This document shows positions 5,354 to 62,920 of a DNA stretch of 64,000 nucleotides, piece by piece. Position numbers and translations under genes: made by a program. The DNA is taken from the NCBI GenBank assembly GCA_016699245.1, contig CP064968.1, positions 155,386 to 219,385 on the forward strand. The letters are read 5' to 3'. This DNA comes from Candidatus Kaiserbacteria bacterium. GTDB lineage: Bacteria > Patescibacteriota > Minisyncoccia > Phycocordibacterales > UBA918. Positions within the stretch are counted from its first letter, which is position 1. Each line of letters opens with the position of its first letter. Under the pieces are notes generated by a model. The model saw nothing but the letters and a program-made list of their open reading frames with translations. It was not told the DNA's origin and did no database searches.

Positions 5354-7663
5354 ATGATTGTTTATCAATCAACGAAACTGGGGTTTTTAAAAGATGCTTC
5401 AAATGGAATTGAAGATATTGTTAGGTCTCGAGTAAAGGAAAAACTTAATATTGATATTCAAGTTGGAAGTAGCGAGTACAACTCATGGAAAAATTCCCTT
5501 GGCGATGCAATGTATAAAGTAATGCAGACAGATAAGATCCCAGATGATTCCGGCATAGCTATCGAATATTCAATACCTCGAGCAAAAAATCGCATCGATT
5601 TTATTATTACAGGTGAAGATGATGAAGGAAAAGAAAAAATAATTATCATAGAACTTAAACAGTGGACTGATATAGAAAAGACAGACAAAGATGGTGTCGT
5701 CTTGACTCGTTTCAAAAGTGGTCCGAGCGAAGAACCGCATCCTTCATATCAAGCCTGGTCATACTCAGCTCTTCTTTATGGATTCAATGCAACAGTATAC
5801 GAAGAAAAAATTAGCCTAGAGCCTTGCGCATACCTACATAATCATATTGATAGTGATGTTATTTTAAGCCCATTTTATCAAGAGTATTTGGATAAAGCCC
5901 CAGCATTTTGTAAAGGTGACAAAGAAAAACTTCAAGATTTTATCGCTAAATTTGTAAAGCATGGTGAAAAGAAAAATACACTTTATAGAATAGATAATGG
6001 AGAAATTCGCCCATCAAAAAATCTTGCTGACAGTCTTACCTCAATGCTAAAAGGTAATCAAGAATTTGTTTTGATAGATGAACAAAAAGTTGTATACGAA
6101 ACTGCTCTATCTCTTACGAAAAAATCATCAAAACAAAATAAAAATGTATTAATTATCGAAGGTGGCCCAGGTACAGGTAAATCAGTTGTAGCCATAAATC
6201 TTTTAGTTGCAATTACTAAACTTGGACTGAATACACAGTATGTAACAAAGAATGCTGCGCCACGGGGAGTGTTTGAAGCAAAACTTACGGGCACATTTAA
6301 GAAATCAGAAATATCAAATTTTTTTACAGGATCCGGTTCCTTTGTTGGAGAAAAGGAAAATATTTTTGATGCTCTAATTGTAGACGAAGCTCATAGACTT
6401 AATAAAAAGTCTGGGATGTTTAAGAATTTAGGCGAAAACCAAATAAAAGAAATTATTGATTCTGCAAAATGCTCAATATTTTTTATTGATGAGGATCAAA
6501 AAGTGACGTGGCATGATATAGGTAAAAAAGAAGAAATTGAAAAATGGGCTGATAAAATCCATGCTAAAGTTTGTAACCTTAAGCTCGAATCGCAATTTCG
6601 GTGCAATGGTTCCGATGGCTACTTATCGTGGCTCGATAATATTCTCGGTATTAAAGATACTGCCAATACCACACTGGATGGTATAGAGTACGATTTTAGG
6701 GTTATAGACTCGCCTAACGAGCTGAGAGATTTAATTTTTGAAAAAAATAAGATAAATAATAAGGCTCGACTCGTAGCAGGATATTGTTGGGATTGGGTCA
6801 GTAAAAAAGACAAGCGTTTAAATGACATTCTTATTCCAGAGCATGATTTTGGTATGCAGTGGAACCTTGCGAGTGATGGAAACGTATGGATTATATCGCC
6901 AAAGTCTGTAAATGAAATTGGTTGTATCCACACATGCCAAGGCCTAGAAGTTGATTATGTTGGAGTTATTGTGGGTAGAGATTTTGTTATAAGAAACGGT
7001 AAAGTAATCACTAATCCTCATGAACGTGCAAAAACTGACGCCTCATTGAAGGGATATAAAAAAGAATTAAAAGAAAGACCAGAAGTTACAGCCGAAAAGG
7101 CTATGTCGATAATTAAAAATACTTATCGAACCCTTATGACACGCGGAATGAAAGGGTGCTATGTATATTTTGTAGACAAAGAAACTGAAAAATACTTTAA
7201 AGACAGAATGAACCTTTCAACACTTACTAAAAAGCCAGTATCAGAAAGTATTATTTCTCCATATGTAGAGGAAATGGTTCTAGTTCCACTCGTTGGATCT
7301 GCGCCTTGTGGTGAGCCACTTTTCGGTGAATCAAATATTGAAGACGTGATACAGGTTGAAAAAAGAAAAATCAGACCCGGCTCAAAATATTTCATTGTCC
7401 GTGCCTCTGGTGATTCAATGAATAAGGCTGGTATAAATGACAACGACCTCGTATTGTGTCGTTTTGCAGAGAAGGCAGAAACTGGTGACAGAGTAGTCGC
7501 GCTACTTGGTGGTGAATATGTGACTATAAAATACTATGATAAAAAAGATGGTCGTCGAATTCTGCTTCCAAAAAGTACAAACAGCACTCACCAACCAATA
7601 ACTCCTGAGGAAGGAGACGTGGTGCAGGGTATTGTTCAAGAAATTTTGCCTAATCCTGAGTAA
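5354..7663 (+). CDS. Multidomain protein: N-terminal PD-(D/E)xK nuclease-like, DUF2075/Schlafen-like P-loop ATPase, C-terminal LexA-type S24 autopeptidase domain
   Basis: N-terminus RIDFIITGED...IIIELKQW (D..ExK). Walker A GGPGTGKS, Walker B IVDEAHRL (DUF2075 pattern). C-terminus PLVGSAPCGEPLFG...ASGDSMNKAGI...VTIKYY parallels LexA PLVGRVAAGEPL...GMSM...VTVKRL (scissile C-G, Ser/Lys dyad). Confidence 0.6.
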   Translation: MIVYQSTKLGFLKDASNGIEDIVRSRVKEKLNIDIQVGSSEYNSWKNSLGDAMYKVMQTDKIPDDSGIAIEYSIPRAKNRIDFIITGEDDEGKEKIIIIELKQWTDIEKTDKDGVVLTRFKSGPSEEPHPSYQAWSYSALLYGFNATVYEEKISLEPCAYLHNHIDSDVILSPFYQEYLDKAPAFCKGDKEKLQDFIAKFVKHGEKKNTLYRIDNGEIRPSKNLADSLTSMLKGNQEFVLIDEQKVVYETALSLTKKSSKQNKNVLIIEGGPGTGKSVVAINLLVAITKLGLNTQYVTKNAAPRGVFEAKLTGTFKKSEISNFFTGSGSFVGEKENIFDALIVDEAHRLNKKSGMFKNLGENQIKEIIDSAKCSIFFIDEDQKVTWHDIGKKEEIEKWADKIHAKVCNLKLESQFRCNGSDGYLSWLDNILGIKDTANTTLDGIEYDFRVIDSPNELRDLIFEKNKINNKARLVAGYCWDWVSKKDKRLNDILIPEHDFGMQWNLASDGNVWIISPKSVNEIGCIHTCQGLEVDYVGVIVGRDFVIRNGKVITNPHERAKTDASLKGYKKELKERPEVTAEKAMSIIKNTYRTLMTRGMKGCYVYFVDKETEKYFKDRMNLSTLTKKPVSESIISPYVEEMVLVPLVGSAPCGEPLFGESNIEDVIQVEKRKIRPGSKYFIVRASGDSMNKAGINDNDLVLCRFAEKAETGDRVVALLGGEYVTIKYYDKKDGRRILLPKSTNSTHQPITPEEGDVVQGIVQEILPNPE

Positions 7664-7782: not shown

Positions 7783-8128
7783 TCCGGTGGCAGGAGGATT
7801 CTTCCATTACATGGACCGTTTAGGTCGTATGACAATTTCTTCCTCTGGTCGAAATTGTCGACGACCTTTTCGAATCCTGACGAAAGCAATTTTGTATTGC
7901 TTTCTCCACTGGAGCTTGTTAGCAAAAATCCCCAAAGAGGGGATTTTTGCTAACAAGCTCCAGTGGCAGGAATTTCTCCATCGACTAATTTTCTAACGAA
8001 AATTGTCTGGGCACCGACTCACTGTTGCAAAGCAACATGCTCCGTCGTTCGAATCCTGACGAAATGTGCGCAGGCACATTTCTCCACCTCCGCAAATTAA
8101 AATAACCCCATGAGGGGTTATTTTAATT
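7783..8128. repeat. Two degenerate tandem units (~173-175 bp) carrying tRNA-Asn 3'-end-like motifs and terminator-like hairpins
   Basis: tccggtggcagga at 7783-7795 and tccagtggcagga at 7958-7971 versus the tRNA 3' end at 8131-8144. Shared ttcgaatcctgacgaaa+hairpin+ttctcca blocks. A-run/stem/T-run hairpins at 7924-7949 and 8099-8127. Confidence 0.6.
8099..8127. terminator. Bidirectional intrinsic terminator hairpin after tRNA-Asn
   Basis: aaaataacccc-atga-ggggttatttt: stem with flanking A/T runs. Confidence 0.6.
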
Positions 8129-8130
8129 TG

Positions 8131-8461
8131 CTCCGGTGGCAGGATTCGAACCTGCGGCCAATTGATTACACGTGTCCTACTATTTCTAGTGGGGGTGGAC
8201 TATATCATCATCCTTTCAAAACTGAATAGGATGCAAGGCGCTTCGACCCATTTCTGGGGCTACTCCCGTTAGGGATAGTCTCTGAACCTTCAATGATGTT
8301 TTCACATCAAAGCTTGGCTGCTGATTGCCCACAACATTACTTGCTAGGGTTTCCAGACAATTCACCTTGTTTTCGACCTACTTCTCAGTAGGAAGCTGCA
8401 TTTTGAAACTCGATTGAGTTCGTGTTTACAGTCAACTGCTCTACCGCTGAGCTACACCGGA
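8131..8461 (-). tRNA. tRNA-Asn(GUU) interrupted by a group I intron between anticodon positions 35 and 36
   Basis: Exons (8461-8428 and 8168-8131) join to UCCGGUGUAGCUCAGCGGUAGAGCAGUUGACUGU|UAAUCAAUUGGCCGCAGGUUCGAAUCCUGCCACCGGAG. Cloverleaf with U1-A72, loop CUGUUAA, T-arm GGUUCGAAUCC. CCA not encoded. Confidence 0.75.
8169..8427 (-). ncRNA. Group I intron (259 nt) within tRNA-Asn
   Basis: Core elements on minus strand: P AATTGTCTGGAAA, Q AATCAGCAGCCAAGC, R GTTCAGAGACTA, S GATGATATAGTCC. IGS GCAG can pair with exon CUGU; intron ends in G (CACGTG|TAAT). Confidence 0.7.
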
Positions 8462-8850
8462 ATGTGTATTTTTTCTGTGTACTTCATTGATAGTGTGGAA
8501 GCAATCTCTTGGGGAGCAGTTGACTGACAGTCAACTTTCTTACAGAAACTGTTCAGGTTGTATGATAATTTTCGTAAACTCAAATTATCGACAACCTCTT
8601 GCGAAGTGACTTTGTGTCACTTCTCACTCTACCGCTGAGCTACACCGGAATGTGTAGTCTATTCCATTATAGCCATTGTTAGCGTGAAACTTCTGTATTG
8701 GGAGCAGTTGACTGACAGTCAACCTCCTTAACAGGAGCTGTTTAGGTTGTATGATATTTTCTTTCGAAAATCTCGACAACCTCTTGCGAAGTGACTTTGT
8801 GTCACTTCTCACTCCACCGCTGAACTATACTGGAATGTGTACTTTGTCTC
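8462..8850. repeat. Tandem repeats (~185-188 bp, 2 units plus stub) each carrying a copy of the tRNA-Asn 5' end
   Basis: Units start at 8462, 8650 and 8835 (aatgtgta...). Each contains ctctaccgctgagctacaccgg (rev-comp of tRNA 5' 22 nt; third copy degenerate) and the palindrome gttgactgtcagtcaac related to tRNA GCAGTTGACTGT. Confidence 0.65.
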
Positions 8851-37873: not shown

Positions 37874-38437
37874 CTAGATTACGATGTCCCCTATATTGCT
37901 CCCAAGTAAGTGATAGTCTTTTACCACTTCCCACCGTCTATCATTACGCTTGAGGAGAGTAATAGTATCGAAAGAGCAGGTGTATGAGGGCGCATTACCT
38001 TTTGAAAGCTTTTCAACTATTTCTGTGGTTTGTTCAGCATCTTTAGGATAAGCAAGTGACGCATGAAACTTTGTATCATTTTCATGGATTTTAAATTCAA
38101 TCCAAGGGAGTTCCTTCAGTTTTTCTTTGAAGTCTTCAACAGCAGTCACTATTTCACTCGGTGCAGCCACATTCATATACACGACACGGTCATCAAAATT
38201 ACCAAAACCAGAGAGTGTGTACTCCACAGGACTGTATGTATCCACAAAGCGTGCAATAAGGCGTTCAACATCAAAAAGGTCTGTACTGAGCGCCTCAAAG
38301 GGTGCTTTGATGGTGAGATGGGGGTCGATACTCGCGGTCACAGGTCGAAGGTGGTAGTGGTGTGCTAAGGCACGGCTCAAGTCCTCATGGTACTTTCGTG
38401 CATCCCCTTTAATCATGTGTGCAATCATGTATCGCAT
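37874..38437 (-). CDS. 2H phosphoesterase (LigT/2'-5' RNA ligase-like)
   Basis: Two H-x-T/S-x motifs (HLTIKAPF and FHASLAY), typical spacing. Confidence 0.6.
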   Translation of the reverse strand: MRYMIAHMIKGDARKYHEDLSRALAHHYHLRPVTASIDPHLTIKAPFEALSTDLFDVERLIARFVDTYSPVEYTLSGFGNFDDRVVYMNVAAPSEIVTAVEDFKEKLKELPWIEFKIHENDTKFHASLAYPKDAEQTTEIVEKLSKGNAPSYTCSFDTITLLKRNDRRWEVVKDYHLLGSNIGDIVI

Positions 38438-38627
38438 ATCTGTGTACTATAGCACCCCTCATTAATTTTTAAAATTTTTGACCCAAAATACACCTAAAAA
38501 ACATGATTATTGTCTTTTAATTAAAAGAGTTGTATTATCCGAACGCATCATTAACCAAGAGGAGAGAGAAATGTATATACATCAAACGAAAGATGAGTTG
38601 CGTCAGTTATTTGAAGAAGCACAGCTG

Positions 38628-38780
38628 GGAATGGACCCGGAAACCGGGGAAAAAGGGGGGCTCCCATGAAAGGCCCCCCGGGCGGAAAATACCCCCGAAA
38701 TTCGCACCACGCCGAACCTCGGCCCCCCACCCAGAATGGGTCCCCAACCCCCGAGTCTTTCCCGGGGCCTCTTTTATGAA
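38628..38780. other. Anomalous G/C-homopolymer-rich segment, possible assembly or sequencing artefact
   Basis: Runs of gggggg/cccccc interspersed with aaa, e.g. ccggggaaaaaggggggctcccatgaaaggccccccgggcgg, in an otherwise AT-rich genome. Confidence 0.4.
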
Positions 38781-39169
38781 ACGGCTGGTATAGTCTAAAG
38801 GTGAATAGTCATTCCTAAGGTTCCCATTCTCTGGAAGGAGTCTCTCATGCGTATCACTATAATGAGCCATAGTCCCACAGTGTCATTTCTCAAATTGTAT
38901 TCGGCAGCGAATCGTTCTAAAATGACCTCTCTCATTTTATCACTCCTGCTGTTTGGTATTGGGTGCGTTGTTTTCACTCACTGAGTGGTATTTTTGGCAC
39001 ACCACTTGCTCTGTGTTGTTTTATCGCAGCACTATGCGTATTTCTCTTAGTCCCAAAATTGTTTTTTAGTAAGGGGAAGGAAAGAAGTACTCACCGTATT
39101 CAATGAAACGCGTATTCTCAAACCACGAGAAAAACACACTTTTGCAGATTCCCGACAAATGCGCACCTG

Positions 39170-39529
39170 GTGCCACTTCGGGGTTTATGTCATGTAGAGT
39201 TTGAACTTGCGCATATTGAAAGGTTTCCTATTTTGGAAATATTCATTCGAGAATTGAACTTTTCATCACCCGGGAATAAAAAACTGCTCTTTTCATTGAA
39301 GTTTGATTGGGACATAGATACTGCTCGACCACTCATGGTTGGCCAGTCCCCCTTGAACAATCGTGCCTTAAACGCAATCAAATCAAATAGTCTTCCCGAA
39401 GAAATCTGTGAGTATGTCGAAGAAATCATCTTTGCCAAAGTGCGCAATCTTGCTGATGACCAAAGTGAGACAGCGCCCGATTTTTTCGGACATTATTTTT
39501 GCGCATGTAGTGGAAACCTTGGCAGGTGA
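39170..39529 (+). CDS. Hypothetical protein, weak
   Basis: ORF only. Confidence 0.2.
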   Translation: MPLRGLCHVEFELAHIERFPILEIFIRELNFSSPGNKKLLFSLKFDWDIDTARPLMVGQSPLNNRALNAIKSNSLPEEICEYVEEIIFAKVRNLADDQSETAPDFFGHYFCACSGNLGR

Positions 39530-39766
39530 GCAGAGTTCTGATAAGACTTCGTTCATCAGCATTACGGTTTCCAGTCTCAAAGCAGCCCTACAGGTTGGGG
39601 ATGAAAAACCGTTTCTCATCTAACCCAAGTTTCACCTTTACAGATCCTCGCTTATGGCGAGGGTTCTTTTATGATTTTTTTTTGTGGTCAAGGCCCTGCA
39701 GCGTGGACTTTTTTCTTTGTCCTGTGGTAGTTTATTAGAGGAAATTGTATCAATTGAAACCGCACC

Positions 39767-40141
39767 TTGAGAGTATCAAGCAAGGTAATTCATTCATTTT
39801 TGACAGGAGTAAGGACTGAAATGAAACAGGAATTTTTCGACGTCTGTCCGGAAGCAAAAGTGTTTAGGTACCAGGTTTTCTTAGACTCTTTTATTCTCGC
39901 CATTCTCGTTGTTGTTTTGTGGGCTTATGGTGGTCGTGATGAGTTTGGACTTGTGATGCTCATTGCTTTCTGCGGGTATCTCATAGTGTCTCTGTCTTTC
40001 CATTCATTGTTTTTCAAAATCGTTGGCAAAGACAATATGATTACTGTGCTCGATGAAAAGATAATGCTTATGCCTGGTGAATCGGTGCGTACGTTACGGT
40101 ATCCTCGAGTCGTACACACAATTCCTCTCAAGGGGAATTAG
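39767..40141 (+). CDS. Hypothetical membrane protein
   Basis: Two predicted TM helices. Confidence 0.3.
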   Translation: MRVSSKVIHSFLTGVRTEMKQEFFDVCPEAKVFRYQVFLDSFILAILVVVLWAYGGRDEFGLVMLIAFCGYLIVSLSFHSLFFKIVGKDNMITVLDEKIMLMPGESVRTLRYPRVVHTIPLKGN

Positions 40142-40425
40142 CCATCGACTTTAACATTGGAAACCTCAAGGCATTTCATGACTTGGAAGAATTCCTGGTC
40201 GATTGTGATGTGCCAGATTTAGAGGCAAAAGCATTTCGTGTAGTTGCTGCACTGACATGGGGATACCCACTGGGGATATGGGTTCGTACAAACAATGTAC
40301 TTCTGCATGACCAATTGCTGTTTGTATTGGCAGATGACATTCGGCGGAGGACTGCTGATGTCATGAAGTTCATCAGCGATTCACATTTTCCATGCTATCC
40401 TCCCATGCTTCAGACTTTTTTAATT

Positions 40426-42184
40426 CTAGGGGAACCCTAGGGAGCAACTATAATTCCCCTAGGGAACCCTAGGAGCAAGACAACTCCACCAACGAAGCGC
40501 TGCGTGATCCGGTGCTCGCGGCGCGACTTCTGGATCCAGCGCGCCTGAATATCTTGCTCTGTCTTCCTTGCACATGTGTACGATTCTCACAGAAGCTCAT
40601 GGTCTCAAAATTATCGACCCGTACATCATTTCGGTCGGGGTCCTGGCGAATACTGGGTGGAACATTGCAAGATCGAAGATGGTCTTGCCATGCGCGTCTC
40701 CTCAGTATAGGAGGTATCGACGATGCACCATCAAAGTGAATATGGTGTAACGAGTTGGTTGGTGTGACATTGGTACCACACGACTGGGGCAATGGTACGT
40801 CTGATTGGTGTTCAAGAAGGTGCTCATTCTGGTATCGGTAAAGGACCCGATCCGTATGACCTACTCGGTCGCAGTGGCAAAAGCTGATGGAACCGTCTGG
40901 CAATACACGTCCACTTCCAGGGAACTTCTACACACTCGTGCAAATGCCGGACAGAGTGTGGTTCTCGCAATACCACAAGAAGGGTGGGGCAATGGACAGT
41001 GGCGAACCGGAGTATCTCGTGACCTCGATCAAGCAATCAGCGAGCCGGTGCGGTTTACACCCTGTTCCACCTACTACGGCTTCTTCAAGTATGAGAAAAA
41101 GAGAGGTTCGTGCGGTGGTGCCGCGAGTAGCAAACGCATTCGTGCTCGTCGGAGATCCAACGAATATCTGGAAGAATGGCAACCACGCAACAGACTTGCA
41201 CTCCGTCCAACCGTATCGTGTCGAAATAGACCATACCTACGTCTCATGAAGCAAAACAAGCTCAAAGCGACTGAGCTGATGTTGCAGATAATGCAGGCAT
41301 AATAGTCACCGCGAGCACTTGCCCGCGTTTCTCATACCGAAAGGTGGGAACGTGGGTTTTAAACAGGTACCAGACCCAACGTTATGGTTGTATCAGAGAG
41401 TGTGACAATATTCCAAAGACAACATGTGTTGCTGGCATCAAAGTACATCTTTTCCAGAGGCCCCTGCCTATGGTAGAGGTAAAATAGTAAGAGGCTCTCT
41501 TTGTTGAAATTTTTATAAAACAGAGCCGAGGGAAATGGATTTCCAAGGGACTCTGATAGGGACTGTCTCGTCTCGCTTAGGCGGCGGCCAACTGACAGCC
41601 GAACTTCCGGTGAACTAAGCATCTCGCAGGACCTCTAGCGGGAAGTCATACGACTGGGCGGTCAGGAAACCATACGAATCAAAACCTTCAGTAAGCGCAG
41701 CCATTATCCCCGCCATGCCTTCGTTGCTGTCTCTGGGTTTGCTCGAGGTCGTAGAATTCCTTTGCGAACGGCACAATCGTCGCGATGAAAAAACATGTAC
41801 TCTTCCTTCTTGAGTTCGAGAATCGAGTCGCCACGCTTAACGGTGATCTGGAACATGCGATGGATTTCATCCTCGTCTTCGGACGCTTCCGTGCTGTCGA
41901 GGCTGGTGGATCGGAAGTGCGAACACCAACTCCAGTAGAGCTTGGTGTCGCCGATCTTAACCCAGCCCTCATAGTCGGTGCCATCGCGAATCTGTTTTAT
42001 ACATTATGACCAAAACTTTCTCGTCGTCATACCGTAATCTCCTTTTTGATTGTGAAATGTGCTTGTTTTGGGCAGTAACTCAAAAACCAAGTCAAAAATA
42101 TCTTAGTACATAAAAATGTTCTGCTCCAACAATTTAAATTTCTAGCAAAATTTCTCTGGACCCTAGGGGACTGACCTAGGGGAA
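40426..42184. mobile_element. GC-rich ~1.7-kb block without intact ORFs, flanked by CCTAGG-containing repeats; putative decayed insertion
   Basis: Left ctaggggaaccctaggg...cccctagggaaccctagg (40426-40473); right ggaccctaggggactgacctagggg (42159-42184). Interior markedly GC-richer. Only short overlapping ORFs on both strands, no recognisable domains. Confidence 0.4.
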
Positions 42185-42353
42185 TGTTCACGACTTCTTT
42201 TCTTCCGTTGCTGTTTTCCTTTGTGTTAAAATATCAATTGATTACTTTTCGCGATGAAACAACTCAGGCAAAAATTAACGTGACCCTGTGAGGTAACAAT
42301 CGAGCCATTGGGGACTCATGTAATATAAAATGATAAGAAACGGCGTACATATC

Positions 42354-43193
42354 ATGAGTAAAGCAATCATCATTATACTTCTCGTTGTCATACTTGGTTT
42401 TATTGGGGTGTTTTATTACTATCCACCTCAAGAAGTCGTACTGGTTGAACCTGTTCTGTGTACCACCGAGGCGAAAATTTGCCCCGACGGTTCGTCTGTT
42501 GTACGCACTGGTCCCTCATGCGAGTTTGCAGAGTGCCCAGCTCCCGTTCCTGTTGTGGAGGTAAAAGAAGAAGGGAAGGTCGCACTCAATCAAAAGATTT
42601 TAAATAATGGAATATTTGTCACACCACTTGAAGTCACTGCAGACAGTCGATGTCCCTCTGACGTGATGTGCGTATGGGCAGGTGAAATTTCTCTAAAGAC
42701 ACGCCTTGAAAAGGGAACAACAACTGCGGATGTAGTATTCAAGCAACAGTCGGCAGTTGTCTTTGAGGGATACTCCATCACGCTTACTGACGTAATCCCC
42801 GAAAACAAATCAACAACAACCCTGAATAAAGCAGATTACCGATTTACATTCACGATGACACCACTAGCGCAATTGATGGTAGGAAGCGTCTCAGGGCGAG
42901 TGACACTGAGTCCTATCTGCCCTGTAGAGCGTGTCCCACAAGAACCGCAGTGTTCACCAAAACCGTATGCAACCACCATTGAGATTAGTGAAGTGGGGAA
43001 GAGTGTGGTTATGAAGACCGTACAGAGTGACAATATGGGAGCATTCAAGATAGATCTTCCGGTGGGTACCTACGTGCTCCACGCACTCACCGTAAATAAC
43101 GCCCCAATGCCCTCGTGTGCGCCCGTGAACGTTACCGTTAAATCAGGTCAGGCAAGTACACAGGACATCTCCTGTGATACAGGGATTCGGTAA
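42354..43193 (+). CDS. Hypothetical secreted/membrane-anchored protein
   Basis: N-terminal TM/signal (IIIILLVVILGFIGVFYYY); Cys-containing extracytoplasmic domain. No motif. Confidence 0.45.
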   Translation: MSKAIIIILLVVILGFIGVFYYYPPQEVVLVEPVLCTTEAKICPDGSSVVRTGPSCEFAECPAPVPVVEVKEEGKVALNQKILNNGIFVTPLEVTADSRCPSDVMCVWAGEISLKTRLEKGTTTADVVFKQQSAVVFEGYSITLTDVIPENKSTTTLNKADYRFTFTMTPLAQLMVGSVSGRVTLSPICPVERVPQEPQCSPKPYATTIEISEVGKSVVMKTVQSDNMGAFKIDLPVGTYVLHALTVNNAPMPSCAPVNVTVKSGQASTQDISCDTGIR

Positions 43194-43269
43194 GGGTTCA
43201 AGATATATTAATTCCCGAGGTCGGACCTCGGGAATGAGAGTATTTTCAAATTCTGATATCTGTGTTGAT

Positions 43270-43512
43270 TTAAAAGTTTCTGTATGTTTGTTCACTTCGA
43301 CGACTAATCTCGAGGACTTCAATGTTTTTTCCCATGTCGAGAAAAATAATTCGGATGCTCCCATATCGTGCCCGGTATATGTCTCTGTATCCAGACAGTT
43401 TTTTAATATCGAGATCTGTAGTATCTCGACTCAGGATTTGCTGAAGAATTTTTTCTACTGCGGCAAACTCCTTGTCGCTGAGCCTTTTAAGAAATTTTTG
43501 ATTTCTGTCCAT
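43270..43512 (-). CDS. Type II toxin, RelE/ParE family
   Basis: C-terminal GYRDIYRARYGSIRIIFLDMGKNIEVLEISRR fits the RelE/ParE pattern. Overlaps upstream antitoxin by 26 nt. Confidence 0.7.
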   Translation of the reverse strand: MDRNQKFLKRLSDKEFAAVEKILQQILSRDTTDLDIKKLSGYRDIYRARYGSIRIIFLDMGKNIEVLEISRRSEQTYRNF

Positions 43513-43753
43513 GCATTTTTTTCATTGAGGCAAGTAGTTGTTCTACGGGTACCCCATGTCCAGTTTCTTTCGTAAAATCAACGACTGTTTCCCACCCGTC
43601 TTCATCTGCATCTACGGGAGTAATTTTAAAAAGTGGAGTAGAACGACGAAAAACGGTGATCGACTCACCCTTGCTGACGCGTGTAATATACGCATCCATA
43701 TTCTCACGGAGTTCTTTAAGTCCAACGGTCGTTTTTTTAATTTTTGTGCTCAT
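43487..43753 (-). CDS. Type II antitoxin, Phd/YefM family
   Basis: N-terminal TVGLKELRENMDAYITRVSKGESITVFRRSTP matches YefM/Phd. Immediately upstream of toxin. Confidence 0.7.
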   Translation of the reverse strand: MSTKIKKTTVGLKELRENMDAYITRVSKGESITVFRRSTPLFKITPVDADEDGWETVVDFTKETGHGVPVEQLLASMKKMHGQKSKIS

Positions 43754-43755
43754 TC

Positions 43756-43790
43756 AATAAGTTTAACTTAAGTTTAACTTAAGTCAAGAT
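43756..43790 (-). promoter_or_regulatory. Direct-repeat operator/promoter region of the phd-parE-like operon
   Basis: aagtttaacttaagtttaacttaag tandem 11-bp repeats right upstream of antitoxin start. Confidence 0.45.
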
Positions 43791-44157
43791 ACAAGGAGTA
43801 CGGTACCCTCATTGTACTAAAGAAAATAAAAAAGTGGACAGGGAAACGAGGCTAAAAGGGAGGCGTGTGATGATAGAGGTACATGAGTTACATTCTATGA
43901 TTTAAAGAAAGTGAGGGGGGACAGGGACAATAAACTTTAATATTTCATGGTGTAATTTGTGATCACAAGTTGCTAAGTATATTTGGTCATGCGGAATGCA
44001 TTGTGGTCACAAGTTACTAACTATAATTGTTCGCTCTGCTCCAATTCTAGTAAGTACTTTTCGACCTCGGCTCGCGGTTCGTCGCCCTAGGAAGGGGCGA
44101 CTCATATCGCTCCGCCCTCACAGTTGGCCCGTACACAAAGCAGTTTGTGTACTAAAA

Positions 44158-44204
44158 CAAAAGAGTCGTTGTCTTTCAACAAGACAACGACTCTTTTGTT
44201 TTGC
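44158..44204. terminator. Hairpin terminator
   Basis: aaaagagtcgttgtctt-tcaaca-agacaacgactcttttgtttt. Confidence 0.55.
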
Positions 44205-44208
44205 CAAC

Positions 44209-44226
44209 TGTGACCCTACCGGGAAA
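44209..44226. repeat. Partial copy of tRNA-Glu 3' end (tgaccctaccgggaa)
   Basis: 15/15 identity to 44407-44421 (tRNA-Glu 3' acceptor/T-stem), then divergence. A further T-arm-like remnant ggtcttcgattcccgga lies at ~44297. Confidence 0.55.
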
Positions 44227-44406
44227 TTCGAAGCCTACTGCTTCAGTACACCTTGTCAGTATTTTGTTTCCTTTCAGTCACAAAATACTAGGCAAGGTCT
44301 TCGATTCCCGGACGAAGAGTCTCTCAGACTCTTCTTAGGGTCATGGGAAGTTTAACAAAGAAAAATCCCTTATGAATAAGGGATTTTTCTTTAAAAACTT
44401 CTACCA

Positions 44407-44478
44407 TGACCCTACCGGGAATCGAACCCGGATTTCTTGGATGAGAACCAAGTGTCCTAACCGTTAGACGATAGGGCC
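44407..44478 (-). tRNA. tRNA-Glu(CUC)
   Basis: Minus strand GGCCCUAUCGUCUAACGGUUAGGACACUUGGUUCUCAUCCAAGAAAUCCGGGUUCGAUUCCCGGUAGGGUCA. Good cloverleaf; anticodon loop UUCUCAU; CCA not encoded. Confidence 0.75.
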
Positions 44479-44593
44479 GAATGTACGTTTTGCATCATTG
44501 TAGTTTAAATCTGGCCGCCTGCGTCACTTTTGCTTCTGGGTAGAAGAAAAAGTGACAGACTCAGAAATTATAGTCGCTTGCGCTCTTTAATTT

Positions 44594-44612
44594 CTGGCCA
44601 CCGTTAGACGAT
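44594..44612. repeat. Partial copy of tRNA-Glu 5' region (accgttagacgatagggcc)
   Basis: 19/19 identity to 44460-44478. Confidence 0.55.
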
Positions 44613-44736
44613 AGGGCCAGACTGTCTGTGAAGACAGAATTGGTGAGTAAAACACATGCCAGCGTTTTCTCAATTCAAATGCTGATTACTCAGCAAAAGT
44701 AGTTATACCAGATTTTTATATTTTAATAAAGCGCTT

Positions 44737-44772
44737 ACATAGGCCTTGCCTATGGTGAAATGCCTGTGTAGA
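44737..44772. repeat. Left copy of 36-bp direct repeat flanking dinJ-yafQ (acataggccttgcctatggtgaaatgcctgtgtaga)
   Basis: Near-identical copy at 45437-45473. Contains palindrome cataggc-ctt-gcctatg. Confidence 0.6.
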
Positions 44773-44814
44773 AACTAGGGAACAGGGAACATTACAGGTA
44801 ATTTCTTATGTACG

Positions 44815-44852
44815 TACATTGTGTTGACAATGTAAGTACATACGATTAAACT
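44815..44852 (+). promoter_or_regulatory. Promoter (TTGACA-N17-TAAACT) with overlapping 8-bp inverted-repeat operator for dinJ-yafQ; probably leaderless
   Basis: TTGACA 44824-44829, TAAACT 44847-44852. IR tacattgt/acaatgta spans the -35. ATG at 44859 lies only 6 nt after the -10. Confidence 0.5.
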
Positions 44853-44858
44853 ATATGC

Positions 44859-45125
44859 ATGACTACATTAAGCATACGTATTGAAGAAAAGACAAAGAAA
44901 GAAGCGGCAAAGACACTTGCTGCGCTTGGACTTGATATGTCGAGTGCAGTAAAGATGTTTCTCCATCAGGTGGTAATAGAGCAGGGAATTCCTTTTAAAC
45001 CTACACGCACACCTCGTGAAATTGTAGATGAATATGACAAGGAGGTGGCATGGGCAAAGAAGCATGGGAAACGATACTCGAACGCGAGTGAGATGTTTGC
45101 GGATATTATGAAAGAGAAGGACTAG
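44859..45125 (+). CDS. dinJ: Type II antitoxin, DinJ/RelB family
   Basis: RHH-like N-terminus; pattern IRIEEKTKKEAAKTLAALGLDMSSAVKMFLHQVV matches DinJ. Confidence 0.7.
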   Translation: MTTLSIRIEEKTKKEAAKTLAALGLDMSSAVKMFLHQVVIEQGIPFKPTRTPREIVDEYDKEVAWAKKHGKRYSNASEMFADIMKEKD

Positions 45126-45127
45126 GT

Positions 45128-45415
45128 ATGTATCAGATTGTCTACGCAAAGAGATTTGAGAAGTCTTTGGCAAGATTAATCAAAGGAGGACTAAAGAAGT
45201 CAGTACAAAAAGAAATAATTGAAACAATTGATTTAATAGCGAGCGGTTCACCGTTACCTCCTTCATACAGAGACCATCAACTTCATGGTGTGTACGCAGA
45301 GTATCGCGAATGCCATGTACAGGGAGACCTTCTCTTGATGTATCAGATTTCCAATAAAGAACTTGTGCTTTTTATGGTGAATGTCGGTTCACACAATGAT
45401 TTGTTCAATCAGTGA
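45128..45415 (+). CDS. yafQ: Type II toxin, YafQ/RelE family
   Basis: DHQLHGVYAEYRECHVQGDLLLMYQISNKELVLFMVNVGSHNDLF matches YafQ. 2-nt gap after dinJ. Confidence 0.7.
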   Translation: MYQIVYAKRFEKSLARLIKGGLKKSVQKEIIETIDLIASGSPLPPSYRDHQLHGVYAEYRECHVQGDLLLMYQISNKELVLFMVNVGSHNDLFNQ

Positions 45416-45436
45416 GAGTACTTTCTAGTGGTGCAT

Positions 45437-45473
45437 ACATAGGCCTTGCCTATGGAGAAATTGCCTATGTAGA
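45437..45473. repeat. Right copy of 36-bp direct repeat flanking dinJ-yafQ
   Basis: acataggccttgcctatggagaaattgcctatgtaga. Confidence 0.6.
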
Positions 45474-45482
45474 TATAAACTC

Positions 45483-46103
45483 TTATAGCGAATTGTTGAA
45501 TACAATTGTATCTAGCATTGACTGGATATCAGAGTCAGTGACTTGTTGGCGACCACTACAAAATACTCCTTGAGTATGTATCACGAGGTATCCTGTGTCA
45601 TAAGGTTTTACATAATAAGTTGACGGATTTGAGACTACAGGATATTTCAAAATGAACTTATTAAGAGTTGTGTTTCCAACAACTACTGAGCCTAGGTCAG
45701 TATAGGTAATTTGTTTTGCATCAGGTTTTTGTAGATTTGCACTGCTATTGTTTAATTGCAAAAGAAATTCTTGAGTATCATATACAGAATTATCATGTTC
45801 CCCATAAAGGAAGTATTGCAACTCAATAAAAGTACTATTTACATCTTCAAATTCGCTACAATATTCGCTTTTTATTGAAGATACATTGTGAATGTCATTG
45901 CTATGTACTTTGTAGTATCGCGGAATAGACATTGTCACAAGTGGTTCGGAATCACTAGGACTTCGATAAAGTTCTACTTTATGAGGTATGTCAAAAACAA
46001 TTGGGACTCCAATTGTAAAGACAAAACAAATTAATAGGAGTAACACAATGCCTGAAACGATTCCAATACGATGCCAAATCAAATATGATTTATCTTTAGA
46101 CAT
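45483..46103 (-). CDS. Hypothetical membrane-anchored protein
   Basis: TM helix near N-terminus. Start set to MSKDK; the track ORF extends to 46163. Confidence 0.35.
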   Translation of the reverse strand: MSKDKSYLIWHRIGIVSGIVLLLLICFVFTIGVPIVFDIPHKVELYRSPSDSEPLVTMSIPRYYKVHSNDIHNVSSIKSEYCSEFEDVNSTFIELQYFLYGEHDNSVYDTQEFLLQLNNSSANLQKPDAKQITYTDLGSVVVGNTTLNKFILKYPVVSNPSTYYVKPYDTGYLVIHTQGVFCSGRQQVTDSDIQSMLDTIVFNNSL

Positions 46104-46245
46104 AGACAATAATGTTAAGTATACATATCTTTCGAAAGATATAAAATAAGTACACAGGAACAATATATTCCTAAATTCATTGCTGTCTCAGTCCGACTTT
46201 TGGTAATTATGAAATTGATATCTGTGAAGATGGTATACTACTCTC

Positions 46246-47928
46246 ATGATACAGGCGCAGACACTGGAAATACTGAAGACGGGGGCGAATGCTTTTCTTA
46301 CGGGGGAGCCGGGGTCGGGGAAGACGTATGTGCTCAATCGGTATATTGATTGGCTCACAGCATGCGACATACCGGTGGCTATTACAGCCTCCACGGGGAT
46401 TGCAGCGACACACATTGGCGGTACCACGATACACTCGTGGGCGGGTATTGGTGCGCGCGACACGCTCACGCAGTACGACCTCGACAACATCATGGGGAAT
46501 GAAAAGACCGTGCGCCGTGTGAAAAAAGCACGCGTGCTCATTATTGATGAAATCTCGATGCTCGATGGGCGTGTGCTCGATATGGTGGAGACGGTGTGTC
46601 GCACGGTGAAGCAATCGGGAGAATCTTTTGGGGGGATGCAGGTAGTACTTGTGGGAGACTTTTTTCAGTTGCCACCTATTGCAGGGAGAGGGGAGATGTC
46701 GCGCTTTGCCTTTGAGTCGCGCGCGTGGGAGAGTGCAAAATTCCTCACGTGCTACCTCACCGAGCAGCACCGCCAGGAGGATGAACTCCTCTTAGGGCTT
46801 CTCAATTCTATTCGCAAAAATGATGTGGACGAGAGTCACTACACGCTCCTCAGTGAGCAAACAGATGTAGGCTACACCGATATCGAACCGACGAAACTCT
46901 ATACGCACAACAGTGATGTCGACAGTATGAATACTTCGCGCCTTAAAGAACTCAATGCCGCGAGTGTCCATTTTAAGATGGATACAAAGGGGAATAAATA
47001 TGTCGTGGAGACGTTGGTAAAAAACTGCCTCTCACCTGAGACGCTCGAACTGAGGAAGGAGGCGATGGTGATGTGCACGAAAAACAACTTTGAAGTGGGG
47101 TATGTAAACGGAACGTTGGGGCGGGTGGTGGACTTTGATAGGGAAGACGGATTCCCCGTGATTGAAACGAGTGATGGGAGAAGTATTAAAATCGCTCCGC
47201 AATCATGGTCGGTCATAGAGGATGGGAAAGTGAAGGGAGAAATCACGCAGGTGCCGCTACGCCTCGCGTGGGCTATTACCGTGCATAAGAGCCAAGGGAT
47301 GTCACTTGATGCTGCAGAAATAGACCTCAGAAATGCCTTTACCTACGGCCAAGGATACGTCGCACTCTCCCGCGTACGCTCTCTTACCGGAATGAAAATA
47401 ATCGGCCTCAATTCACAAGCGCTCCTTGTGGACCCGCGTGTGGTACACAAGGATGAGCACTTCCGCGAGGAGTCGGATGATGCGGAGTTTGTGTTTGCCG
47501 AAATGGAAAGTGAAGAAGTGACCACGATGCAGAAAAACTTTGTAAATGCCTCGGGTGGTAAGTGGGCAGAAAAGGTGGAGGGAAGGGTAAAGCATGCGGG
47601 TGTGCCGGTACGCGAAAATACGTATGCGGTCACCAAAGAACTTGTGGAAAAATGTATGAGCGCACACGATATTGCAAAGACGCGTGGCATGGCACTTTCG
47701 ACCATCTGGTCGCATATTGAAAAACTTGCAGAGGATAAGGAGATAGGAAAGAAGCATATTGAAAATCTTATTCCTTCGGATGCTGTTTGGACTGCTGCGT
47801 ACCCCCATATATCCAAAGCATTTGAAAAGCATGGCACGGAGAAATTAAAGCCAGTCTTTGAAGAACTTGATGAGGCGTATGACTACGACCTCATTCGCCT
47901 CGGAAGACTTTTGTATACGATTAAATAA
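46246..47928 (+). CDS. Pif1/RecD-like SF1 DNA helicase with C-terminal helix-turn-helix domain
   Basis: Walker A GEPGSGKTY, DEISML, VLVGDFFQLPP, SF1 motifs V/VI (ITVHKSQGMSLD, SRVRSLTG). Confidence 0.75.
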   Translation: MIQAQTLEILKTGANAFLTGEPGSGKTYVLNRYIDWLTACDIPVAITASTGIAATHIGGTTIHSWAGIGARDTLTQYDLDNIMGNEKTVRRVKKARVLIIDEISMLDGRVLDMVETVCRTVKQSGESFGGMQVVLVGDFFQLPPIAGRGEMSRFAFESRAWESAKFLTCYLTEQHRQEDELLLGLLNSIRKNDVDESHYTLLSEQTDVGYTDIEPTKLYTHNSDVDSMNTSRLKELNAASVHFKMDTKGNKYVVETLVKNCLSPETLELRKEAMVMCTKNNFEVGYVNGTLGRVVDFDREDGFPVIETSDGRSIKIAPQSWSVIEDGKVKGEITQVPLRLAWAITVHKSQGMSLDAAEIDLRNAFTYGQGYVALSRVRSLTGMKIIGLNSQALLVDPRVVHKDEHFREESDDAEFVFAEMESEEVTTMQKNFVNASGGKWAEKVEGRVKHAGVPVRENTYAVTKELVEKCMSAHDIAKTRGMALSTIWSHIEKLAEDKEIGKKHIENLIPSDAVWTAAYPHISKAFEKHGTEKLKPVFEELDEAYDYDLIRLGRLLYTIK

Positions 47929-62726: not shown

Positions 62727-62920
62727 GTCCATCCACTAACCCCATCTACTTCGTGGCCGGAACGTACAGAGCGTAGCGACAATACGTTCCGAGTCTGTCG
62801 CTTTTTCTTCCCCACGGAAGAAAAAGCGACGAGTGAGTCGTTCAGACATTCATCGTACGCCATGTACGCTTCATGTCTTCACTCCTCGATGCCTCGTATC
62901 TGGGGTCATTGGATGGACTC
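62725..62920. repeat. ~196-bp element bounded by imperfect 19-bp inverted repeats with internal hairpins (MITE-like or structured RNA)
   Basis: gagtccatccactaacccc versus ggggtcattggatggactc. Internal hairpins ggaacgta...tacgttcc and gtcgctttttcttcc-ccac-ggaagaaaaagcgac. Confidence 0.45.

Follow-up and report, generated by a model that had tools for sequence, protein, structure and literature searches.

The window analysed here, the whole 64-kb stretch of DNA, belongs to a Kaiserbacteria-like Patescibacterium; the Pif1-type helicase encoded at 46246–47928 is 95% identical to its counterpart in an uncultured metagenome-assembled genome (MAG) of the Paceibacterota/Kaiserbacteria type. The subject of this work is the stretch between the pbp-murE genes and pif1 (~36.3–46.2 kb), which contains a tRNA-Glu(CUC) gene flanked by copies of its own ends, a structured non-coding element of three hairpins (44000–44214), two toxin–antitoxin (TA) gene pairs and a block at 40426–42190 with an orphan open reading frame (ORF) and a dead gene. 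The left flank is represented by genes of the cell wall group, namely, those for PBP transpeptidase, Mur ligase, a CAP-domain protein and LigT, and the right flank by pif1 and the genes for a YgjP-like peptidase and TruB. A set of 80 related loci was taken from GTDB genomes for comparison, and look-ups of the exact window proteins returned no record, so their gene context was drawn from homologues. The genes pbp-murE, tRNA-Glu and pif1 are conserved anchors of the region, and the content between the anchors varies.

The tRNA-Glu gene and its flanking duplications

The intact gene of tRNA-Glu(CUC) (44407–44478, minus strand) is the one intact tRNA call of the window and lies upstream of pif1 in ~25 related loci, the distance between the two being 166 bp to 4.2 kb. 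Its terminator is a perfect 17-bp hairpin (44357–44392) within a longer hairpin, 44336–44414, which includes the tRNA 3′ end. The copies of tRNA-Glu fragments reported in the initial annotation were all confirmed, in particular an exact 15-nt copy of the 3′ end at 44211–44225 (gap of 181 bp, degenerate similarity up to ~44236), an exact 19-nt copy of the 5′ end, tRNA positions 1–19, at 44600–44618 (gap of 121 bp), and an inverted piece of the T-arm, comprising T-loop and T-stem, at 44300–44311. No further copies of the tRNA-Glu 3′ end with up to 3 mismatches were found in the 64 kb besides 44211–44228; accordingly, the repeats bracket modules of 121–196 bp and not an island.

Comparison with related loci showed the uninterrupted state of both junctions. 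In the loci L047, L006 and L007, the counterpart of 44600–44737 joins the tRNA 5′ end directly, and in the locus L061, the counterpart of 44001–44245 joins the tRNA 3′ end directly, which identifies the tRNA fragments as insertion-associated duplications. The window thus contains an insertion of 140 bp on the 5′ side of the tRNA and an insertion of ~196 bp on the 3′ side, and in each of them the neighbouring tRNA end is duplicated. The 5′-side insertion (44479–44618) is composed of a 121-bp module, designated M3, and the 19-nt direct repeat 44600–44618. The M3 module consists of a hairpin, the motif AGACTC and a mini-hairpin with the loop TCGCTTGCGCTC; this insertion is present in the window and in the closest relative L001 (M3 module at 105–190) and absent from L047, L006 and L007. 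On the 3′ side, a nested second module (44211–44345) contains the displaced copy of the tRNA 3′ end, two hairpins of the type designated M2 and the inverted T-loop/T-stem 44300–44311, parted from an inverted acceptor strand (44338–44345) by a 24-nt hairpin; a homologue of this module was found in L006. The junctions in the relatives show that the second module was inserted later, between the three-hairpin element and the tRNA, with duplication of the last 15 nt of the gene, and that a third module was inserted on the 5′ side, with duplication of tRNA positions 1–19.

A second copy of M3, comprising the hairpin, AGACTC, the mini-hairpin with the loop TCGCTACGCTC and GGCCAC, is located at 62760–62850 on the minus strand, in an intergenic position with no tRNA nearby. 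The contigs of L001, L005, L007, L012 and L014 start inside tRNA-Glu or not more than ~200 nt from it; such breaks at tRNA-Glu in the closest relatives are as expected for a repeat. Elsewhere in the window, at 8122–8466 on the minus strand, there is a tRNA with a GUA anticodon and a short variable arm, the anticodon loop of which is split by a group I intron (RF00028, 83.5 bits, 8176–8431). This gene was not called by ARAGORN, and the 18-bp terminator stem that follows it takes in the last bases of the tRNA.

The three-hairpin element and its distribution

The full copy of the element at 44000–44214 is represented by hairpin H1 (44005–44066, loop TTCGCTCTGCTC), hairpin H2 (44069–44116, apical sequence CCCTAGGAAGGGG), hairpin H3 (44131–44152, loop GCAG), a bidirectional terminator hairpin (44154–44202) and a long-range stem, 44118–44128/44203–44213, which closes the unit and the 3′ strand of which reaches the tRNA end. 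A partial duplicate of the 5′ arm of H1, 84% identical to 44001–44032, lies directly upstream (43957–43999, plus strand). Sequences with ~80% nucleotide identity to 44000–44214 were found beside tRNA-Glu in genomes whose Pif1 is only 58–60% identical to that of the window.

The hairpins are conserved as structures. In 82 non-redundant copies, among the matches listed, pairing in H1 is retained in 95.8% of cells, against 75.6% in shuffles and 30–43% with slid partners, and cells with a double change number 294 against 89. The covarying columns had been left free or binary by the retrieval pattern; therefore, the covariation is no artefact of that pattern. H3 combines a fully variable 9-bp stem with the constant GCAG loop, the H1 loop UUCGCUACGCUC is conserved, and the base of H2 covaries too.

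Rfam was searched with the window and seven related loci; no model matches 44000–44214 or the block 40426–42190, the matches above the gathering score are tRNA and, elsewhere, the group I intron only, and at E up to 5 only chance matches to microRNA-like hairpins appear. A number of known RNAs were considered as candidates for H1–H3. Signal recognition particle RNA, 6S RNA and RNase P RNA lack their defining motifs here (by eye, the formal test being the Rfam search), and the same holds, by eye, for group II intron domain V, retron RNA, bridge RNA and a tRNA-like anticodon arm. The possibility that the element encodes a small conserved protein was rejected too, since the reading frame is broken in L061 and the substitutions are compensatory. 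No sigma-70-like promoter was found on either strand of the window copy; the only two matches of this kind in 43150–45000 lie ahead of dinJ and ahead of phd.

The sequence 44000–44214 is a copy of an element which abuts the 3′ ends of tRNA genes of many identities in genomes of the Paceibacteria type and in metagenomes. In an unbiased Pif1-anchored set of 1.3 Mb with 55 tRNAs, a profile of H1 detected 12 copies, all 12 of them at a tRNA 3′ flank. A pattern scan of metagenomes returned at least 129 copies in at least 120 loci, and the degenerate pattern had no matches in viral contigs. Among the matches listed, to which the counts in this and the next paragraph refer, a convergent tRNA is located within 700 nt in 66 of 129 copies, usually 145–200 nt from the element start, and 19 of the 129 are truncated by a contig end. 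The tRNAs beside the element copies carry at least 28 different anticodons. Of 63 tRNA-adjacent copies, 30 are accompanied by a direct repeat that matches the tRNA 3′ end over at least 12 nt, with no more than one mismatch; in 18 of these 30, the repeat reaches precisely to the element start (GTCAC...) and terminates with ...GGAATCG, within the T-loop at positions 55/56. The repeat often runs 3–8 nt past the gene into the trailer. In many copies, H2 is followed by a sense-oriented segment of T-loop, T-stem and acceptor split by H3, and the window sequence 44300–44345 is such a segment; other copies, including the main copy of the window, adjoin the extreme end of the tRNA. At the orthologous tRNA-Glu flank, variants of the element are present in ~16 loci, and 9 loci have there only a plain terminator or a gene.

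M2 modules are nested inside several element copies, and both M2 and M3 share the hairpin of the element with the UCGCUWCGCUC loop. Modules of the same kind, bearing tRNA fragments, adjoin many different tRNA genes in housekeeping contexts and without cargo. Among 469 ORFs flanking the element, the recurrent neighbours are housekeeping genes, encoding FtsA, FtsZ, MiaA, RbfA, LepA and similar proteins.

Three individual loci deserve description. The locus L117 (FUWD013231401.1, 4052–4730) contains five identical tandem copies of the element with a period of 136 nt; a fragment of a tRNA 3′ end closes the array, an M2-like hairpin module comes next, and no intact tRNA is present within 1.7 kb. 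In L126, an ORF of 360 aa, similar to the IS110 family, is located between the element copy and the nearest tRNA and looks incidental. In L150, the element copy and tRNA-Glu(CUC) are 2.4 kb apart, and the intervening DNA carries two unknown ORFs and a gene for an HTH protein of the XRE type.

Variable gene content between the conserved anchors

Search with tblastn of every open frame of 33–50.5 kb against the 80 related loci showed that the genes for PBP and Mur ligase, as well as everything from pif1 rightwards, are conserved. No counterparts were found in these loci for 38446–42324 or for the phd gene pair, while the CAP protein was matched in one locus and LigT in one locus, at another position. 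The closest relative, L001 (Pif1 identity 95%), lacks ~44732–46205, a segment of 1.47 kb with dinJ-yafQ and a 226-aa ORF; L002 (Pif1 identity 93%) retains dinJ-yafQ with 81% nucleotide identity, and its flanks differ. The 136 ORFs around tRNA-Glu in the relatives include genes for HicA, a rolling-circle Rep, a Type ISP domain, AIPR, Imm5 and RadC. An integrase is absent among the 25 commonest of the 70 families matched by these ORFs, the ORFs of the closest loci, scanned one by one, proved to be housekeeping genes or unknown, and no similarity was found between the accessory ORFs of the relatives and the block 40426–42190. The prediction that 40.4–45.5 kb would prove variable among relatives is thus borne out between the anchors, and small-scale variation is concentrated in this region, which lacks the anatomy of one integrated element.

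The adjoining 2 kb at 38438–40425 contain only short ORFs (63–124 aa) with a modest coding signal and no family matches; counterparts are also absent from the related loci, so the variable stretch reaches well to the left of 40426, the start given in the initial annotation. The gene for the LigT-like 2′-5′ RNA ligase, located at 37874–38437 on the minus strand of the window, has a 61% identical counterpart at 360–938 on the plus strand of L012. There it lies between tRNA-Glu and pif1; in the window it is inverted relative to this and located across the tRNA, at a distance of 6 kb, and a rearrangement is implied. A gene for an FAD-linked oxidase of ~620–690 aa is located between tRNA-Glu and pif1 in 14 more distant relatives, among L016–L061, and is missing from the window and its closest relatives.

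Two genes of membrane-anchored proteins belong to the same stretch. The ORF of 226 aa at 45483–46163 (minus strand) has a GC content of 0.327, against the window mean of 0.446, and has no family matches in Pfam or PHROGs; together with its absence from L001, these properties suggest a recent foreign origin. The protein of 287 aa encoded at 42330–43193 (plus strand) has a weak carboxypeptidase-regulatory-like C-terminal domain and only distant relatives, located elsewhere in other genomes.

Toxin–antitoxin systems are represented by two pairs. The DinJ-YafQ pair recognised in the initial annotation is solidly identified by its domain matches, which lie well above curated cut-offs: dinJ (44859–45125, plus strand) encodes a DinJ/RelB-family antitoxin of 88 aa (PF04221, E = 3.7e-12; TIGR02384, 74 bits, cut-off 45.65), and yafQ (45128–45415, plus strand), separated from it by 2 nt, encodes a YafQ/RelE-family toxin of 95 aa (PF15738, 91.9 bits, cut-off 30; TIGR02385, 71.4 bits, cut-off 27.9). 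Only the match of the toxin to TIGR00053, the YafQ equivalog-like model, remains under its cut-off (77.2 and 87.25, respectively). Of the second pair, described previously as Phd/YefM-ParE-like (43270–43753, minus strand), the antitoxin stands and the toxin is a candidate. The gene phd (43487–43753) encodes a Phd/YefM-family protein of 88 aa which passes TIGR01552 (23.1 bits, cut-off 20.8), with PF02604 at 18.7 under its cut-off of 29.8; the gene overlapping it by 26 nt (43270–43512) encodes a RelE/ParE-superfamily toxin candidate of 80 aa, which is below the cut-off of PF05016 (16.3 bits, E = 0.015, cut-off 23), though it matches phrog_1213, a RelE-like toxin family, with E = 1.1e-7. In domain content, gene order, small size and the presence of a promoter repeat, both pairs are ordinary, autonomous type II modules of the DinJ-YafQ and Phd/YefM-RelE/ParE kinds, except that the second toxin is divergent and falls below the Pfam cut-off.

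Each pair is preceded by a repeat at its promoter. The previously noted 11-bp tandem repeat ahead of phd is real (43758–43785); the repeat AAGTTTAACTT, with 2.4 copies, was annotated at 43758–43787 on the minus strand and overlaps the promoter-like sequence TTGACT-16-TAAACT. The inverted repeat ahead of dinJ, TGTACGTACATTGT/ACAATGTAAGTACA (44810–44852, plus strand), was also found as described, and its 14-nt arms (44810–44823/44829–44842) lie over the −35 hexamer of TTGACA-17-TAAACT, a promoter by consensus match only; the core of this repeat is kept in L002. Autoregulation via an operator at the promoter is established for type II systems; accordingly, each pair probably represses its own expression through these putative operators.

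Repeats of another kind bracket the dinJ-yafQ pair. The 29-nt repeat GCTTACATAGGCCTTGCCTATGGTGAAAT at 44733–44761 has a 93% identical twin at 45433–45461, and both contain the palindrome CATAGGC-CTT-GCCTATG; several CCATAG(G/T)G motifs are located upstream of dinJ in L002. These repeats could be cassette boundaries or a binding site. Tandem G-rich motifs, GGGGACAGGGAC at 43917–43928 and CTAGGGAACAGGGAAC at 44775–44790, are located ~80 nt upstream of the three-hairpin element and of the dinJ start codon, respectively, and L061 has GGGGACGGGGAC at the equivalent position (7563–7578). They may be related to the CTAGGG(G)AAC units which bound the block 40426–42190.

This block had been described as GC-rich, decayed, devoid of intact ORFs and bounded by CCTAGG-containing repeats. 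Its GC content, 0.495, is indeed above the window mean (0.446, standard deviation 0.03) and within the top 4% of windows of the same size, but the enrichment is mild and equals that of ordinary genes, such as pif1. The window contains 9 occurrences of the heptamer CCCTAGG, with 2.7 expected, and 8 of the 9 lie at the two edges of the block, 40435–40473 and 42161–42181, with the remaining one at 44085. The left cluster (40426–40480) is formed by CTAGGG/CCCTAGGG palindromes with the two near-tandem units TCTAGGGGAACCCTAGGGAGCAAC and CCTAGGGAACCCTAGGAGCAAG, and the right cluster (42157–42186) by CCCTAGGG/CCTAGGGG palindromes; the reverse complement of the latter has ATTCCCCTAGG in common with the left cluster. 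No clusters of CCCTAGGG-type palindromes were found in 1.24 Mb of the relatives' loci, and the 6 matches of the CCTAGG repeat in viral contigs do not exceed chance by our own rough estimate.

The ~1.75-kb segment bounded by CCCTAGGG contains an orphan ORF and a dead gene of a family found only in Patescibacteria. Contrary to the initial annotation, the ORF of 148 aa (40856–41302, plus strand) is intact; it is identical to the GenBank hypothetical protein IPH92_00855, has only itself as a match among 5.8 billion proteins and no family matches in Pfam, NCBIfam or PHROGs, and its host-like coding signal is weak. The description as decayed holds for 41586–42030 on the minus strand, a frameshifted relic of a gene for a protein of ~155 aa. 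A good Shine–Dalgarno site and an ATG at 42030 are retained, but there is an in-frame TAA at codon 9; alignment with three intact genes (~50% amino-acid and ~70% nucleotide identity) revealed at least 8 indels, several of them frame-breaking, and a deletion of 18 nt, and the conserved C-terminal motif SYDFP...CEMLS.PKFGC (ending in CEMLSAPKFGC in the family) is spread across three frames. Accordingly, 41586–42030 is a pseudogene. An exhaustive profile-free search with the frame 41707–42003 (minus strand) yielded 18 relatives of ~140–160 aa, and a second search yielded 67 family members from Moraniibacteriota and Minisyncoccia, all of them annotated just as hypothetical proteins. The intact members are solitary genes in unrelated chromosomal contexts; the family has no Pfam domain and no PDB relative, and no copies of it were found in viral contigs. 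The decayed gene is thus no transposase or integrase but belongs to a chromosomal Patescibacteria family of unknown function, and no likeness to an integrase or transposase was found anywhere in the block. An origin of the block from a phage or plasmid was rejected, both the blastn search of phage and plasmid collections and the PHROGs scan being blank.

Origin of the variable stretch and of its tRNA-associated modules

The reading preferred here, to which we assign a probability of about 55%, is that ~36.3–46.2 kb, from pbp-murE to pif1, is a strain-variable stretch formed by several small independent events, and that the tRNA fragments in it are footprints of structured modules. With moderate confidence, the modules are regarded as non-autonomous repeats which insert at the T-loops or 3′ ends of tRNA genes, the gene being rebuilt. 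In the proposed mechanism, hairpin-rich non-autonomous modules would insert at the T-loop (positions 55/56) or at the tRNA 3′ end, and the intact tRNA would be restored via duplication of its 3′ segment. Such modules would be akin to miniature tRNA-targeting integrative elements mobilised in trans, and the conserved hairpins may be the part which is recognised, as folded DNA or as RNA. This course of insertion and rebuilding is our inference.

The frame for comparison with tRNA-targeting integrative elements is the grouping of tyrosine integrases by tRNA sublocation class. As in T-loop and 3′-end integrative elements and their integrase-less derivatives, which are cis-mobilisable and flanked by att sites, the repeat of the tRNA 3′ end in the modules starts in the T-loop and passes the gene end, the tRNA is left intact, and the orthologous site is occupied or empty. 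In contrast to these elements, the modules are of ~120–200 bp, have no integrase in cis, carry one conserved core at 28 or more anticodons and additionally contain the tRNA 3′ segment in inverted form, as well as covarying hairpins. With repeats of the REP/BIME, Correia and ERIC types the modules share short length, non-coding nature, hairpin formation, multiple copies, intergenic position, nested or tandem arrangement and the breaking of assemblies. They differ from them in the near-exclusive association with tRNA ends, the fixed orientation and a long target-derived repeat in place of a 2–10-bp duplication, and a cognate transposase was not found.

An imperfect hairpin with a covarying stem and a fixed loop or bulges is also typical for integron attC, CTX-phage attP and the ends of IS200/IS605. 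A covarying stem with a fixed loop would be expected for a structure-specific recombinase or an HUH enzyme; this is a resemblance only, and no linked integron integrase, Xer-dependent phage or TnpA/TnpB gene was found, unlike in these systems. Small RNAs (sRNAs) derived from 3′ external transcribed spacers of tRNAs are, like the element, structured, non-coding and located directly downstream of the tRNA; however, they are locus-specific trailers without tRNA-fragment repeats, whereas the element has one core at many tRNAs, with a terminator between.

A number of observations weigh against the preferred reading. Faithful rebuilding of 28 different tRNAs is not easily explained with a fixed element end, and the long direct repeat is missing in half of the copies among the matches listed. 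No recombinase or transposase recurs beside the element among the 469 flanking ORFs of those matches. The mismatches in H1 are A·C in 27 cases and G·U in 7, which favours pairing on the tRNA-sense strand; the corresponding figures for H3, 5 and 3, are neutral on strand, and terminator position (27 of 119 copies among the matches listed) is too weak a criterion of strand. The test for compensatory changes between inverted and direct copies had only 7 informative sites. Finally, no close relative covers 38.4–43.9 kb, and the variability of the block and the phd pair therefore rests on more distant genomes.

The main rival is that H1-H2-H3 represent a functional RNA and not mobile DNA, either a convergent sRNA gene or a structured trailer on the 3′ side, transcribed together with the tRNA. 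The tRNA-derived segments would then serve a function, e.g., as a junction mimicking the acceptor and T-stem, or in the control of 3′ processing or read-through. The strongly covarying H1, H3 and base of H2, the conserved UUCGCUACGCUC and GCAG loops, the exclusive association with tRNA 3′ ends and the retention of the unit at the same tRNA-Glu locus in genomes as distant as those with Pif1 identity of 58–60% would all fit such an RNA, as would the lack of mobility genes nearby and the excess of A·C over G·U, which is consistent with G·U pairs on the tRNA-sense strand. Covariation alone, however, does not distinguish an RNA from a folded-DNA hairpin; the window copy has no sigma-70-like promoter on either strand and is separated from the tRNA by a strong bidirectional terminator, and the occupied and empty orthologous sites, identical tandems, nesting and repeats running into a non-functional trailer resemble insertion footprints. 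On balance, this explanation is judged distinctly the less probable one, though it is to be taken seriously.

The initial annotation had interpreted the whole of 40.4–45.5 kb as the remnant of an integrative element or as a variable island at tRNA-Glu; in the form of this model with a single decayed element, the tRNA fragments would be its att sites and the block the remains of its integrase or transposase region. Variability among relatives stands; the single element is unlikely. TA modules in variable content beside a tRNA, exact direct repeats of the tRNA ends, the uneven GC composition (0.495 in the block, 0.327 in the 226-aa ORF, 0.446 in the window), the defence and accessory genes at the same tRNA in relatives (HicA, rolling-circle Rep, Type ISP domain, AIPR and Imm5) and the 2.4 kb of cargo between element copy and tRNA in L150 are what such an island could leave. 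Nevertheless, no island-scale repeat of the tRNA was detected, since the repeats bracket 121–196 bp and there is no other tRNA-end copy in 64 kb; no recombinase domains were found by Pfam, NCBIfam and PHROGs in the ORFs of 39.1–46.2 kb, and the decayed gene comes from a chromosomal family absent from viral contigs. An element copy which distant relatives have retained at this site separates the block and the phd pair from the tRNA, and dinJ-yafQ, on the 5′ side of the tRNA, varies independently. It is highly improbable that the block 40426–42190 is a large structured non-coding RNA or a mobile element recoded in an alternative genetic code. Low host-like coding potential over 40440–41700, a sole long ORF of 148 aa and the palindromes at both bounds could be read in this way; yet the block has no Rfam match, its folding z-scores of ~0 to −2.9 are like those of the flanking genes, against −8 to −14 at 44000–44400 relative to shuffles, reassignment of TGA, TAG or TAA opens no long frames, and 41586–42030 is demonstrably a frameshifted protein gene.

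A variable patch with TA cassettes and a dead gene beside a tRNA is routine. The new part is the non-coding element recurring at tRNA ends, which is conserved, covaries strongly and matches no Rfam family. We give about even odds to the proposal that the three-hairpin unit represents a previously undescribed family, widespread in Patescibacteria and tied to tRNA 3′ ends, being either a miniature site-specific mobile element, which inserts in the T-loop or 3′ end and restores the tRNA, or a structured RNA co-expressed with the tRNA, in which the tRNA 3′ segment is copied in both sense and antisense orientation; a shallow search of the literature found no description of such an element, an absence which is not proof. 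The setting is that of ultra-small reduced genomes, in which each non-coding base is costly. If the element is mobile, it would be a compact tRNA-targeted insertion that spares the target gene, and it would probably account for the breaks of MAG assemblies at tRNAs. As an RNA, it would represent a new class of tRNA-linked RNA in a lineage with hardly any known RNA biology. In both cases, the element provides a concrete searchable motif.

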